Below, one piece after another: positions 7,611 through 56,755 of a DNA stretch of 64,000 bases (position 1 is its first letter; each line of letters starts with the position of its first letter). Source of the stretch: Chiloscyllium plagiosum (Eukaryota). The stretch covers positions 66,473,351-66,537,350 of the forward strand of contig NC_057718.1 in assembly GCF_004010195.1 (NCBI RefSeq), read 5' to 3'. Under the pieces are notes generated by a model that did not search any database, had not been told where the DNA came from, and was given only the letters and a program-made list of their open reading frames with translations. The translations under genes and the position numbers were made by a program.

Positions 7611-8150
7611 GAGATAGTATTAGGGTCTAGGGGCATGTTGGTAATGTCCCTACCTCTACACAGAATGTAAACGACCCATATGTCCAGAGTAGATGGGACG
7701 ATGTTTCTGAATGGGTTGATTAAAACTATTTATAAATAAAGTAGCTTGTTCAATCAACTTTTCCTGTGAGGGTACCTAGTTCAGGCGATACCATATAGTG
7801 TTGTGTCAGGCACCTGATATTCCTGTGGCATTTAAATGGGACATTAGGAAACTTAACAAAAATACGTTTCAACAAATCGGTTCCATGTGCTTGTGTAAAA
7901 TTTCTGTTTGCTATTTTAACAAACTATAGTGTTTAATGATTTATGACACATTTATATGAGCTAATAATCCTGGTAAAATTAATGATTTCATTCATCTAGA
8001 TTAAATGTTTTTTTAAAGCTGAGGAGGGAAATTTGAAGTAAAAGTAGAATATGGTAGTTCAGCTAACATTCAGAAGTTGAGGGTAAATTTGCAGCTTGGG
8101 AGAGGAGACTTCCTTTAACATTGTTACTGTTCCTGTTTTCTTTCCGTTAG

Positions 8151-8396
8151 GTGCAAGAGTGGGAGATGAGATCTTGATTATAAATGGTGAAATGGTTGCT
8201 AATCTACACCATGCACAAATTGAATCGTTATTTGCAGAGAACCACTTAATACTGACTATCAGAAGGTTCTCATTAGATTGCAACCAAATGCCAACAGACT
8301 ACAGCGATTCACTAAACCACATGATGTCCCCGCCTCCTTCTGACCAATCAAAATTGCTGGTTGAGTTTATTGACAACCTTCTTCCTGTCCCTTCCG
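8151..8396 (+). CDS. TIAM2: TIAM2 coding exon, second half of PDZ domain plus proline-rich linker (ARVGDEILIINGE...PPPSDQSKLLVEFIDNL)
   Basis: Acceptor tttccgttag|, donor |gtgagt, 246 nt, phase 1-1. Contains the PDZ GD-I--ING motif and resembles recalled TIAM2 PPPNQSQLLEEFLDN. Confidence 0.92.
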
Positions 8397-9399
8397 GTGA
8401 GTTCTGGGTTTCTTTGTAATTACAAAACTGTGTCATGTTTTTAGAGAAGTCATGGTGTATTTTCTCTTTAAAAACAAATGTGACTTTTTTTTTCAGATGG
8501 CAGATGATTCAGAGCTCACCCTGAAATCTAAACATCAGCTTTGTGACCTTTGTTTATCTGGTTTAAATCTCCTGAATTGTTGTTGATAAGACACTTTGAA
8601 TTGTTTTGCCGTTTGTTCCTCTGAGTCTCGGAGATACTTATAGAAGAAATTTTCTACGTGCATTTCTAGAGTAGTGCAGGAACTAATGCTGTAATCTTTC
8701 ATCGTGAGGCACTATGGATTTTGGAATGTGGCATCAGTGAGCAATAAACAAACTTCATTAGCTGGAAATGACTGGATACATAAACATAGACTATTAAAAT
8801 TGAAAATATTGATTTTCAAGTACAGCACAGCAATACAGTTTGACTAAATTGATGCCTGTTTATTTCATAATTTGCTACTGAAGAGTTAAATAGTTTCTTT
8901 CCTTTAGCTTTTGATCTTGTATGTGCTATTTATTTTGGTGCCTTTTGCAGTGTCACTTGTGATATGACCGATAGGGTGATGCGACTTGGCATGTCTTTGC
9001 GCTGATTAGAAAGGAGGTTTTGTGTGAGGAATTGAAAATATAAATGACCAGTGGTACACACTCAAATATGAAGGACATCTAGAACATCAAACTTAGTTTT
9101 CAATCTTGGGGAGAGGAATACCATTCATCCCATTGAGTGCATAGTGGCTCACTGTAAGGCAATCTGGTCAGTTTTGTTCCCTGATTGTAGCTCTAAAATT
9201 TTATTTTCCTCAAGTGACCATCCAGTTTCCTTAAATATTTGGATCGTCTTTGGCAAAGTTCTCCATAAATATTGCCTGCTCCTTTAAGAAAGTTTATGAT
9301 GTTGGACCGCCAGAAGATTCATCAAGTTCTACATTTCTATAAACTGACAACACCAGTGTTGAGAAGTGTAAATGAGAATGGAATTCCTCAGATCCAGGT

Positions 9400-9899: not shown

Positions 9900-10770
9900 C
9901 ATAAACAATAAGACGTAGGGGCAGAAGTAGGCCACTTAACCCATTGACTCTGCTCTACCATTCAATGGGATCATGGCTGATCTGATAATCTTTAACTCCA
10001 GTTTATTTCCATAACCCTTGATTTCCTTAATGATTTGTTTTAGATTGCATATACTTAACAGCTCGGCCCCAACAGCCCTCCTTAGTAAAGAAAGTCATAA
10101 ATCGATACTTTCTGCAAGAATAATGTCTTTCTTATCTCTGTTTCAAATCAACCACTTTTATTTTGAGATTATGCCCTCTAGTCCCAGACTCCCCCCATTG
10201 GGGAGCAACCTTTGAGTCTGCCATGTCAAGCCTCCTGATAATCCTATATGTTCCAATAAGATCACTCATTTTTTTCTAAAGTTGAAACTTTATTGCTGGA
10301 ACAGCACAGCAGGTCAGGCAGCATCCAGGGAACAGGAGATTCGACGTTACGGGCACAGGCCCTTCTTCAGGAATGAGAAGAAGGGCCTGTGCCCGAAACG
10401 TCGAATCTCCTGTTCCCTGGATGCTGCCTGACCTGCTGTGCTGTTCCAGCAATAAAGTTTCAACTTTGATCTCCAGCATCTGCAGACCTCACTTTCTCCA
10501 TTTTTTTCTAAACTCTAATGAGCACAAACCTAAGTGACACAACCTTCCCTCAAGAAAATGCCTTTATATTTGCAATCAACTCAGTGAATCGCTGTACTTT
10601 CTCCAGTGCCAGTTTGTCTTTCTTTGCCTAAGGGAACCAAAATGATCAAAGTATTCCTGCTGTGGTCTGATTAGTAACTTACACAGTTTTAACAAGTTGT
10701 TCCTATTGTTATACTCCATTCTATCTGAAGTAAAGGTCAACATTCAACAATTTATTTTCCCTATTGCCCC
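9900..10770 (-). mobile_element. Old CR1 LINE 3' end, interrupted at 10281-10498
   Basis: ggggcagaagtaggccac...ccattcaatgggatcatggctgatctg and ccaaaatgatcaaagtattcctgctgtggtct are typical minus-strand CR1 3' sequences. Confidence 0.65.
10281..10498. mobile_element. Palindromic Penelope-derived mini-element with two hammerhead-like motifs and a 14-bp TSD
   Basis: Near-perfect inverted repeat, ~10281-10367 versus ~10378-10464. Flanked by CATTTTTTTCTAAA at 10267-10280 and 10499-10512. Confidence 0.88.
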
Positions 10771-14309: not shown

Positions 14310-15297
14310 ATGGGTTTTGAGAGGGTTTGTAGCTCAGGTTGAGGTTCTGGGTGTAGGTTTGCTCGCTGAGCTGGAAGATTCGTTTTCAGACATTGCATCG
14401 CCATACGAGGTAGCATCTTCAGTGAGCCTCTGGATGAAGCACTGGTGGTGTAGCCTGCTTTCTATTTATATGTTTGGGTTTGTGATGTAATTTCCTACGA
14501 TGTCATTTCCTGTTCTCTGCAGGGGATGGTAAATGGGACCCAGAGTTCCGGTTGGAATGCCATGCTTCTAGGAATTCTCATGCAGTCTCTGTTTGGCTCG
14601 TCTTAGGATGGATGTGTTGTCCCAGTCGAAGTGGTGTCCTTTCTCATCCATATGTAAGGATAGTAGTAAGAGGGGGTCATGTCTTTTTGTGGCTAGTTGA
14701 TGTTCATGTATTCTGGTAGCTAATTTTCTGCCTGTTTTGACAATGTAGTGTTTGTTACAGTCCTTGCAAGGTATTTTGTAAATGACATTAGTTTTGCTTG
14801 TTTGTAGAGGATCTTTCAAGTTCATTAGCTGCTGTTTTAGTGTGCTGGTGAGTTTGTGGGCTACCATGATGCCAAGAGGTCTGAGTAGTCTGGCAGTCAT
14901 TTCTGAGATGTGTTTGATGTAGGGGAGAGTGGCTAGACTTTCTGGGTGTCTTTTGTCTGCTTGTTTAGGTTTGTTGCTGAGAAATTGGCGAATTGTGTTC
15001 TCTGGGTATCTGTTGTTTTTGAATATACAGTATAGGTGATCTTATTCTGCTCTGCGTAGTTCCTCTGTGCTGCAGTGTGGTGGCTCTTTGAAATAATGTT
15101 CTAATGCAGCTTCGTTTGTGGATGTTGGGATGATTGCTTCTGTAGTTCAGTATTTGGTCCGTGTGTGTTGTTTTCCTGTAGATGCTCGTTTGAAGTTTCC
15201 CATCAACTGTTCGCTATACTGTGACATCTAGGAATGGCAGTTTGTTGTTTTTTTTCTCCTCTTTAGTGAGTTTTATGCCAGTAAGGGTATTACTGAT
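14310..15297 (-). mobile_element. Penelope-like element, Poseidon type (RT C-terminus, GIY-YIG, 3' UTR)
   Basis: ORF 14568-14900 reads NVIYKIPCKDCNKHYIVKTGRKLATRIHEH. A degenerate hammerhead lies at ~14386-14425. Confidence 0.88.
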
Positions 15298-15307
15298 TTG
15301 GGTATTA

Positions 15308-15579
15308 TACATCAAAGACATCTAGGAAATGACTGCCAGGCTACTCAGACCCCTTGGCATCATGGTAGCCCACAAATCCACCAACACATTAAAACAGCAG
15401 CTAATGAACTTGAAAGACCTTATACAGACAACAAGCAAAATTAATGTCATTTACAAGATACCTTGCAAGAACTGTAACAAACACTACATTGGACAAACAG
15501 GCAGAAAACTAGCCACCAGGACACACGAACATCAACTAGCCACAAAAAGGCATTACCCACTCTCAATAGTATCCTTGCA
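15308..15579 (+). mobile_element. Inverted partial copy of the same Poseidon-type Penelope element (GIY-YIG)
   Basis: ORF 15329-15610 reads VIYKIPCKNCNKHYIGQTGRKLATRTHEH and is the reverse-complement match of ~14651-14921. Confidence 0.88.
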
Positions 15580-16109
15580 TTTTAAAATGAAATGGAAACT
15601 GCAATTTTGAGCAAATTCCCTAATTTCTAACTTGCAAACAGCACTAAAACAAATGAACACTATTAAAAAATGTCTTAAATGTTTTGCTCAACAAATTCCA
15701 ATTAGTTTTATTAGAAATGTCATCCCTGCCCCAAACATAATAAATCTGTGTTGCCTTTTCTGCTCAGTTGTTCCTCCTTAATTATAGCTTCCAATAACCA
15801 CCCCAACAACAGAATTTAGATAGGCAGGTTTCTTTTTAAATGCGGATTTACTTTGCAAATTTTCAGAGAGAGGAGACTATTTCTAAATTGAGGCAGCGCT
15901 GGATGACTATGGCTAAAATATATGCAATTCCCTGTCATGCTGCTGCTGCTAGTCCTATTCTTACCAGGAGATTTGCTGTCATAGTATATCATGTTCATCT
16001 ATCTTGAACGTGCACTTTAGATTTTCTTTAATCACTCAATGTCATCCATTGTCCCAACTATGTCTAAATCAACCTTTTTGTCTCTTAGATTATCTTTTAA
16101 GACCCTTAA

Positions 16110-22089: not shown

Positions 22090-22344
22090 GGACGGCACGG
22101 TGGCACAGTGGTTAGTACTGTTGCCTCACAGCACCAGAGACTTGGGTTCAATTCCCGCCTCAGGTGACTGACTGTGTGGAGTTTGCACATCCTCCCCGTG
22201 TCTGCGTGGCTGCCTGACCTGCTGTGCTGTTCCAGCAATAAAGTTTCAACAATGGGTCTGGGTGAGTTGTGCTTCGGCGGGTCGGTGTGGACTTGTTGGG
22301 CCGAAGGGCCTGTTTCCACACTGTAAGTAATCTAATCTAATCTA
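22090..22344 (+). mobile_element. Chimeric HE1 SINE with its middle replaced by 42 bp of Penelope terminus
   Basis: HE1 head at 22090-22208; 22209-22250 is identical to 10423-10464; HE1 tail with (TCTAA)n at 22251-22344. Confidence 0.85.
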
Positions 22345-43309: not shown

Positions 43310-43405
43310 CTGAAGAAGGGCTTATGCCCGAAACGTCGATTCTCCTGCTCCTTGGATGCTGCCTGACCTGCTACGCTTTTCCACCAACACATTTTTCAGC
43401 TCTGA
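43310..43405 (+). ncRNA. Minimal hammerhead-ribozyme motif in a ~95-bp Penelope-terminus fragment
   Basis: CTGAAGA-A-GGGC-TTAT-GCCC-GAAAC-GTC: conserved CUGANGA and GAAA boxes, stem II and a GUC triplet. The 5' arm of stem I is missing. Confidence 0.65.
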
Positions 43406-46119: not shown

Positions 46120-48225
46120 AAACTGGAAAAGTCATGTCTGACTAACTTGGAATTTTTTGAAGAGCTAATAAACAGGACTGATAGCAATGCTCTTGATGTA
46201 ATGGACTTCCAAAAAACATTTGAATAAAGCCACGCAATAGACTTGAGAAAAGTTATACCTCATGGAATATGAGGATCAGTAGCAACATGGTTACAAAATT
46301 TGCTTATGCCATCCCGTATTCCCAATTCCTCCGCCTCTGCCGTATCTGCTCCCAGGAGGACCAGTTCCACCACAGAACACACCAGATGGCCTCCTACTTT
46401 AGAGATCGCAATTTCCCTTCTCACGTGGTTAAAGATGCCCTCCCAACGCATCTCATCCACATCCCACACCTCCGCCCTCAGACCCCACCCCTCCAACCGT
46501 AACAAGGACAGAACACCCCAGTGCTCACCTTCCACCCCACCAACCTTCACATAAACCAAATCATCCGTTGACATTTCCGCCACCTCCAAAAAGACTCCAC
46601 CACCAGGGATATATTTCCCTCCCCACCCCTTTCCGCCTTCCGCAAAGACCGTTCCCTCTGTGACTACCTGGTCAGGTCCATGCCCTCCTACAACCCATCC
46701 TCCCATCCTGGCACCTTCCCCTGCCACCGCAGAAACTGTAAAACCTGCGCCCACACCTCCTCCCACACCTCTATCCAAGGCCCTAAAGGAGCCTTCCACA
46801 TCCATCAAAGTTTTACCTGCACATCCACTAATATCATTTATTGTATCCGTTGCTCCCGATGCAGTCTCCTCTACATTGGGGAGACTGGACNNNNNNNNNN
46901 NNNNNTTCCCCCACCTCACCCTAGTTCTAAACTTCCAGCTCAGCACTGTCCCCATGACTTGTCCGGACTTGTCCTACCTGCCTATCTCCTTTTCCACCTA
47001 TCCACTCCACCCTCTCATCCCTGACCGATCACCTTCATCCCCTCCTCCACTCACCTATTGTACTCTATGCTACTTTCTCCCCGCACCCACCCTCCTCTAG
47101 CTTATCTCTCCACCCTTCAGGCTCTCTGCCTTTATTCCTGATGAAGGGCTTTTGCCCGAAACATCGATTTTGCTGCTCCTTGGATGCTGCCTGAACTGCT
47201 GTGCTCTTCCAGCACCACTAATCCAGAATTAAGAATAGGAAGCAGAGTGTGATGGCTGATGGTGTTTTTGAGCTGCAGGAAGGTTTGTAGTGGTGTTCCC
47301 AGGCATCAGTGTTGGCCCCTGGCTTTTCTTGCTGTATATCAATGGTCTAGCTCATTAGGGGAGATTTTCCAAGTTTTACAGGTGATACAAAATTTGAGAG
47401 CACTGTAAACTGTGATGAGGATAATAAGACTTCCAAAAGGATATAGACAAGCTGGTGAAATGGACACATCAGTAGCAGATGAAGTTTGATGCAGTGAAGA
47501 GTGTGGTGACACATTTTGGTGCAAGTAATATAGAAAGACAGCATAAACTAAAGGATGCTACTCTATCGGGTGTGCGAGATCACAGACCTAGGTGAATATG
47601 TGCATAAGTCATTAAATTTGGCAGGACAGTTAAAGTGAGCTCTTACTAAAACGTGGTATTGTAGGTTTCACTGATAAGGGCACAGTATATAAGATATTTT
47701 GCTGAATATATATAAGACACTTTAGATGGAAGTTGGAGTATTGTATACAGTTCTTTGTGCCACCCTTTAGGAATGATATGACCCAATTGGAGAGAGTGCA
47801 ATGGAGGTTTACAAGAATGGTTTCAGGGATGAGAATCTTCAATAATGAGAATAGATTGAGAAAGTTAGGACAGTTTTCCTTGGAGAGGAAAAGGCTAAGA
47901 GGAAATTTGATCAAAGTTTTTTAAATTCATGACAATAGATAGGGGAGAAACTGTTCCTCCTCTTGCAAGGATGACAAGCCAGGTGGGAAATAAGGTTTCC
48001 ACACAGCAAGTAGTTAGCAGATGGAATGCGCTGTCAGGAACTGTGACAGAAGCAGGTTTGAGCTGAGGCTTTCAAGAGGATATTGGATAATCATTTAACA
48101 GAAACAATATGCAGGGATGTGGGTAAAGAATGGAGATTACCTATAATTTTAAATATATAGAGAGCTGGAGTAGACACATCAGACCAAATGGCTACTTTTT
48201 GTACCCAACAATTGTGATTCTGTGA
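46120..48225 (+). mobile_element. Old CR1 LINE interrupted by a Penelope element at ~46305-47229
   Basis: Peptides SCLTNL and MDFQKTF before the insertion, and EYCIQF...LERVQWRFTRM...RLRGNLIKVF after it. Confidence 0.8.
46305..47229 (+). mobile_element. Penelope-like element, Neptune type (RT C-terminus, Cys-rich linker, GIY-YIG, hammerhead terminus)
   Basis: Peptides AIPYSQFLRLCRICS and PCHRRNCKTC...FTCTSTNIIYCIRCSRCSLLYIGETG. CTGATGAAGGGCTTTTGCCCGAAAC at 47138-47162. Confidence 0.9.
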
Positions 48226-56647: not shown

Positions 56648-56755
56648 GGAGAAAGTGAGGACTGCAAATGCTGGAGGGCAGAGTCAAAGAAGTGTGGTGC
56701 TGGAAAAGCACAGCTGGTCAGGCAGCATCCGAGGAGCAGGAGAGTTGATGATTTC
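56648..56755 (-). mobile_element. Short Penelope-terminus fragment (downstream-of-hammerhead part plus tail)
   Basis: Reverse complement of the ctcctgctcctcggatgctgcctgacc...ctccagcat.tgcagtcctcactttctcc module. Confidence 0.75.

Follow-up and report, generated by a model that had tools for sequence, protein, structure and literature searches.

Palindromic insertion at the host locus

The window (the whole stretch of DNA analysed, 64,000 nucleotides of the Chiloscyllium plagiosum genome) includes a plus-strand gene, tentatively named TIAM2 in the initial annotation. Its one recognizable part, near 8138-8400, is a PDZ-like exon (Pfam E=0.0066, below the cut-off), for which the PDB and Atlas returned generic PDZ hits and no TIAM chain. 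This gene hosts a short insertion in which two cut-down copies of the same Penelope-like terminus (pLTR) stand head to head within a target site duplication (TSD) (Table 1). Element positions are numbered with +1 as the first base of hammerhead stem I (10374, minus strand), with a real copy, L034, as the reference. The palindrome between the TSDs measures 218 bases. An initial annotation had described an exact 14-bp TSD, which we recovered, and arms of about 87 bp with one mismatch; the single mismatch stands, but the arms are 91 nt each (10278-10368 and 10377-10467, 99% complementary, with an 8-nt loop). The lower figure omits a 3-nt overlap with the TSD, the last three bases of the left copy also being the continuation of the element (+95..+97). 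The 34-nt extension assigned to the right arm only is likewise present, and corresponds to the Penelope tail. The predicted hairpin has an MFE of -191.3 kcal/mol (z = -25.9), with none of 200 shuffled sequences as good, and it is plausible that a long hairpin would form in the host pre-mRNA.

In a related species (organism B), one contig joins 10266 straight to 10499 and retains one copy of the TSD, with 293 and 189 letters on the two sides (X13 record 12). Because organism B has this empty site, the insertion and its TSD are real and younger than the organism-B split, in agreement with the earlier reading of a young, single, TSD-flanked integration event that might have left an empty site in a relative. 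The same contig also lacks the 31 bases at 10688-10718 of the window. Mis-assembly, raised at the outset as a possible objection, is ruled out by the empty site together with thousands of similar copies that have their own TSDs; the holes in X8 and X11 carry no weight on this question. A run from organism A (X2) extends 24 and 21 letters into the element, below the 31-letter bar, and is perhaps from the assembly's own sample, so that it supports the insertion weakly. The window copy is a new TSD-flanked pair of head-to-head Penelope-like ends, although the layout itself is already known.

The pLTR of the window copy and of its parent carries a minimal type I hammerhead motif, and the MFE fold of parent positions +1..+60 forms stems I and II. 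Both motifs of the window copy are broken, and in the ways originally described. The minus-strand hammerhead has GAAA changed to GTAA (A13U) at 10349, the one position at which the arms differ; because the other 29 of the best 30 matching copies lack the change, it is a private mutation. The plus-strand motif begins at G5 of the core and is without C3-U4, the CT of CTGA. Because of these two lesions, and because stem II has a computed pairing probability of 0.0 on either strand inside the palindrome, neither window hammerhead is predicted to work. Rfam returned no hammerhead match up to E=5, and its seven chance hairpin hits were all under the gathering score. The minimal hammerheads of metazoan Penelope-like element (PLE) pLTRs (PMC4209133) are similar in having a 4-bp helix I, an unpaired base before helix II, and almost no helix III, but helix II is 4 bp here rather than the 7-8 bp of the Schistosoma examples, and, unlike those hammerheads, both window motifs are broken and buried in a hairpin. 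The same source noted pairs of hammerhead motifs on opposite strands about 100-700 bp apart. We infer that the window copy is a dead by-product, without a working ribozyme and with no sign of function.

Other Penelope-like pieces are scattered through the window. pLTR stubs of the same and related families, with 81-100% identity to the arms, are present at 1696-1819, 22209-22250, 43310-43405, and 56649-56743, the second of these being an identical 42-nt piece that ends at the +94 site. An older, related fragment at 46224-47214 (plus strand) comprises an RT thumb/linker with a Cys motif, the start of a GIY-YIG domain, and, beyond a gap, a pLTR whose hammerhead, at 47138, looks intact. A different Penelope-like family is represented by two fragments in opposite orientations (14420-15041, minus strand; 15326-15607, plus strand), with a GIY-YIG-like end and a hammerhead-like motif near 14422.

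Table 1. Features of the window palindrome and of a composite lineage used for comparison
Feature	Position	Strand	Remarks
Left TSD, 14 nt	10267..10280	+	Exact direct repeat; single copy at the organism-B empty site
Tail-less arm, pLTR -3..+94	10281..10377	-	Numbering relative to L034
Minimal type I hammerhead	10339..10374	-	Stem I 4 bp, CUGAAGA, extra A, stem II 4 bp, GUC site
Head-to-head junction, -3 joined to +7	10369..10377	.	1-nt overlap; 22 exact copies genome-wide
Initiator-like motif	10372..10377	-	Its A is +1; putative RNA start
Tailed arm, pLTR +7..+94	10377..10464	+	Hammerhead without C3-U4; predicted cut site after 10402
Penelope tail, 34 nt, +95..+128	10465..10498	+	Right arm only; family tail end at +129..+131 in 69/90 copies
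Right TSD, 14 nt	10499..10512	+	Exact repeat of the left TSD
192-copy composite lineage	L223:4031-6557; L038, L049, L149, L250-L269		Fixed -145/-72 junction; up to 2.7 kb of host DNA

Parent element and census of its copies

Searched with a 32-nt tail pattern, the 3.56-Gb genome yields 10,285 exact matches, compared with none for the control. In relatives, the pLTR and tail run into the start of an ORF, a partial tandem arrangement that the window copy lacks, and upstream of the pLTR are a GIY-YIG domain (Pfam E=2.7e-4, slightly short of the cut-off), a C-x4-C-x2-C linker, and RT motifs; in L222 the RT motifs are followed by an assembly gap and then by the endonuclease (EN) and the pLTR at 98.5% identity. 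The RT piece lies near RVT_1/HTH_animal clusters (0.94-0.96), and has no Pfam hit of its own and no relative in the PDB. No gap-free full-length parent ORF was recovered among the copies examined. The N-terminal region of the parent ORF (L152, L168, and L221) is long and rich in Ala/Thr. A Pro-rich unit of 12 residues, repeated in tandem and in frame, coincides with assembly gaps; these gaps may explain the missing complete copy. Judged by sequence, both arms come from the pLTR end of an EN+ Penelope-like element with RT and C-terminal GIY-YIG domains, as the initial assignment to Penelope-like elements with a minimal type I hammerhead had anticipated. The C-x4-C-x2-C motif precedes GIY-YIG in L221 and L227, and by the criterion of a Zn-finger-like CX2-5CxxC linker between RT and EN (PMC8557442) the parent is probably Neptune-type; Nematis, too, has a linker motif.

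The layout, with an inverted truncated pLTR, a one-sided tail, a TSD, and a palindrome at the junction, is already published (Arkhipova 2013; Craig 2021), and the features of EN+ PLE derivatives (a 34-nt tail at one end, an inverted cut-down copy, and a TSD) are all present in the window copy. Insertions of EN+ PLEs such as Pen2a_Av of Adineta (PMC3846280; scheme in PMC8557442) similarly have head-to-head inverted pLTRs, a TSD around the whole unit, a junction palindrome, and a tail of 30-40 bp on one end only. Compared with those described in these papers, the window copy has no ORF and only about 95 + 122 nt of pLTR; and, unlike the published insertions, this minimal palindromic form, with both arms stopping at one position, makes up 51 of the 90 copies sampled here.

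The sample comprises the first 90 of the 100 tail matches listed, all from the first 26 Mb of contig C1 (two are one locus), and, by requiring an exact tail, contains young copies only. The remaining 39 copies are single arms, and the palindrome is the commonest product of the element family, not a one-off. The outer end of the inverted arm is at +93..+96 in 36/51 palindromes, a site also used by the outer end of the window copy's tail-less arm, and the tail ends at +129..+131 in 69/90 copies. Inward, the longer arm stops at -10..+8 in 42/51 palindromes, 21 inverted arms ending exactly at +1 or +2, and 17/39 solo copies start within the same interval. TSDs are 11-17 nt long in 42/51 palindromes, and the junctions show overlap in 29, are blunt in 6, and have inserted bases in 16. 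Among 42 canonical palindromes the tail-less arm reaches further inward in 26, the tailed arm in 9, and the two are equal in 7. In three copies (L002, L033, and L248) each arm has all or nearly all of the tail, with no TSD detected for L002 or L248. Genome-wide, exact junction patterns identify at least 3,015 palindromes, of which 2,702 have two subfamily A arms (AA), 301 two subfamily B arms (BB), and 12 apparently one of each (AB); the commonest junction types, read by eye, occur in both subfamilies.

Junction identity and tail polarity

The insertion was originally interpreted either as a member of a retrozyme-like nonautonomous family or as a fold-back or other integration product, with copies sharing its junction as the proposed check. 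The window's exact junction is present at 22 loci and is therefore not unique to the window, and this sharing is what would be expected of a 218-bp unit transcribed and re-inserted from one or a few masters; five of the subfamily A copies, including the window copy, also have the same polarity. However, only 11 of the 22 belong to subfamily A, the other 11 being in other subfamilies, and among the 11 subfamily A copies the tail is on the short arm in five, on the long arm in five, and on both in one. Both polarities recur in the other subfamilies where scorable, and no diagnostic variant links the five same-polarity copies. Moreover, the 51 sampled palindromes have 43 junction keys, and the window copy has neither a tandem direct repeat nor an intact hammerhead.

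The behavior of a junction that is inherited is illustrated by a positive control, the -145/-72 junction, which was found 192 times genome-wide and establishes that a head-to-head junction can be propagated. In the first 20 copies listed, the tail is always on one arm (20/20), and five long copies and a sixth have in common 1.5-2.7 kb of captured non-element DNA, at 99.9% identity. This lineage is apparently a palindromic insertion turned read-through source; the source locus itself was not found. In many members the tail-less arm is newly made, or the copy has been shortened to about +95: 6/20 are cut back to an end at +93..+97 with a TSD, whereas the source continues to +105 and into host DNA, and 3/20 (L255, L256, and L258, the last read by eye) have tail-less arms with parent sequence past -145, to about -170, -397, and -562, that is missing from the sampled 2.7 kb of the source. 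Because the inherited junction has a fixed polarity and the window junction does not, the window palindrome is a recurrent integration product and not a retrozyme. It is likely that a palindrome is formed afresh whenever one inserts, and that it does not propagate as a unit. The opposite reading is already largely refuted for the element family, and we regard it as very unlikely; of the two original interpretations, the integration product is thus the one that survives.

Comparison with known retrozymes leads in the same direction. Non-LTR retrozymes are, like the window copy, short, noncoding, and PLE-related, with a type I hammerhead, but they consist of direct tandem units with working hammerheads and are cut into circular RNAs (PMC7229834; bioRxiv 10.64898/2026.07.22.740005). 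The hallmark of at least two direct tandem units with complete hammerheads is absent from the window copy, a single inverted pair with both motifs broken, and there is no match to a fixed monomer bounded by the cleavage site, since ends are rarely at the cut and both junction and polarity vary. The element has, in addition, derivatives with internal deletions that are arranged as direct tandem repeats and have intact hammerheads (L063-L066, L077, L081-L083, and L087-L088). Their units are of about 208, 224, 268, and 320 bp (224 and 320 at several loci), and a pLTR end plus ORF start is joined to an upstream pLTR. These 208-320-bp derivatives resemble retrozymes more closely than the palindrome does, and are the family's candidates for retrozyme-like elements.

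Origin of the palindrome

We consider it probable that each palindrome results from one integration in which reverse transcription starts from both cut target strands and the resulting pair of short cDNAs is joined head to head. A staggered cut of about 14-15 nt would provide two 3' primers, and both nicked strands would prime on element RNA, at +95 and about +130. Both cDNAs would extend as far as the 5' end of the RNA, which would coincide with the first base of the hammerhead; with +1 as the transcription start, priming in the 5' pLTR would yield only run-off cDNAs of 95-130 nt, whose 3' ends would then be joined by microhomology or with short insertions. The templates would be uncleaved RNA, mostly from one source lineage. 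The observations to be accommodated are that the two outer ends are at fixed pLTR positions (+94/95 and +129-131), that the inner ends are concentrated where the hammerhead begins, at its first base, that the junctions vary, that the side of the tail is independent of the junction, and that the parent encodes RT and GIY-YIG.

There is a biochemical parallel for the outer ends. In vitro, the protein of an anole PLE cuts and extends both target strands, reverse transcription starts at two internal sites bounding the tail, and RNA that has not been cleaved serves as the main template (PMC11167929). The outer ends of the palindromes match these two kinds of site, although those data are for a Poseidon element (PAc) and not for the window's element family. 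Hammerhead cleavage is unneeded in either case, but Anolis Poseidon belongs to a different clade (the parent here has the CX4CX2C linker), its ORF starts inside the hammerhead rather than after the tail, and the portion of the account covered does not describe head-to-head joining of two cDNAs.

The position of the inner ends is open to more than one interpretation. We read +1 as the probable RNA start from the sharp stop of the arms, from the motif at that position, which we take to be initiator-like by comparison with the consensus, and from the presence in other PLEs of internal pLTR promoters with an initiator. Such promoters have been described (PMC2377424, PMC3846280). For other families in the flanks (38 motifs), conservation upstream of +1 declines gradually, a result that does not bear on the start site. 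Two primings could also be combined with inner ends that mark either where the RT stalls on the folded hammerhead or where the RNA is processed, and +1 is exactly the 5' base of stem I. A polymerase moving 3' to 5' would, however, meet the 3' stem strands first (+36 and +24), where ends are rare, and copies reading through to -70..-560 exist. Processing at the self-cleavage site is opposed by the paucity of ends at +28..+38 (1/51 inverted arms, 1/51 tailed arms, and 4/39 solos), and we give the variant with a stall or processing site scarcely any weight. Hammerhead cleavage as the origin of the 5' ends was rejected for most copies, as few ends are at the predicted cut; for solo ends within +9..+82, 4/14 are at +28..+38, which is no clear excess over chance.

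In the literature, head-to-head junctions of PLEs have been explained by self-priming, in which a single cDNA folds back close to the 5' end of the RNA and serves as its own template (PMC3846280), and by resolution of the hairpin by the endonuclease with a 34-nt stagger, leaving a one-sided tail (PMC8557442). Self-priming with endonuclease resolution is a serious rival, even if we consider it unlikely. It would account for the 99.6% subfamily concordance of the arms, and for rare variants found on both arms of some copies (L238 and L247); in 35 palindromes, 2 differences are shared and 24 are arm-specific. The scarcity of AB palindromes, 12 as against about 551 expected from a mixed RNA pool, is equally well explained, whereas two primings demand a strong same-source bias, re-use of one RNA, or arm-to-arm conversion. 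Most of the 12 are single point changes, with one partly mixed and one, L174, mixed at all scored sites.

Several observations nonetheless favor two primings. If a fold-back were target-primed, the tailed arm, made first, should reach further inward, yet this was seen in 9/42 palindromes and the reverse in 26/42; because the tail-less arm is so often the longer, each arm has bases that are absent from its partner, as in the window copy, and simple copying of one arm from the other is not the usual case. Folding back cannot make arms of mixed subfamily (L174), nor arms with sequence missing from the partner's source (L255, L256, and L258), and a tail produced by hairpin resolution is at odds with its mapping in vitro to two RT start sites (PMC11167929). 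At the tail-less end, target and element overlap by at least 1 nt in 29/35 cases, as against an expected proportion of about 0.43-0.49. Two points count against this last argument: the overlap at the tailed end is near chance (19/35, p=0.17), and the excess at the tail-less end could reflect target preference instead. Where the published papers prefer self-priming or EN resolution, the copy statistics here favor two primings.

Priming from both strands has a precedent among other retroelements. In LINE-1 twin priming, both ends of a staggered target break prime cDNA, generating a 5' inversion within one TSD, and the inversions copy nonoverlapping parts of one RNA. Unlike these, the palindrome arms described here copy the same stretch, and two templates or two passes are therefore needed. 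In the literature covered, largely the main text of papers outside the subscription journals, there is no account of PLE twin priming or of shark PLE palindromes; supplementary material such as Fig. S2 of PMC11167929 may bear on the question.

We tentatively propose a more general account, to which we assign somewhat less than even weight, in which more than half of the Neptune-type insertions here would consist of a pair of run-off cDNAs. Each target strand would prime one of them, at the sites bounding the tail; both would stop at a promoter start that coincides with the first base of the hammerhead; and they would be fused head to head, with two different RNAs as templates in some cases. 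One such palindrome would have become the 192-copy read-through source carrying 2.7 kb of host DNA, with its far end re-made at +95.

The population of copies matters more than the single ordinary copy in the window, because it bears on how Penelope-like elements form their inverted repeat and one-sided tail. With copies in the thousands, young, almost identical, and distinguishable by subfamily, folding back and two primings can be separated by counting; tail polarity, subfamily markers, and the 192-copy read-through lineage together provide a direct test of how the inverted repeat arises. The several thousand perfect hairpins of about 90 bp could also be a large source of dsRNA where they are within transcripts. 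If the proposed account is true, these copies would provide in-genome evidence that twin target priming, and not self-priming, is behind the PLE inverted repeat and tail.
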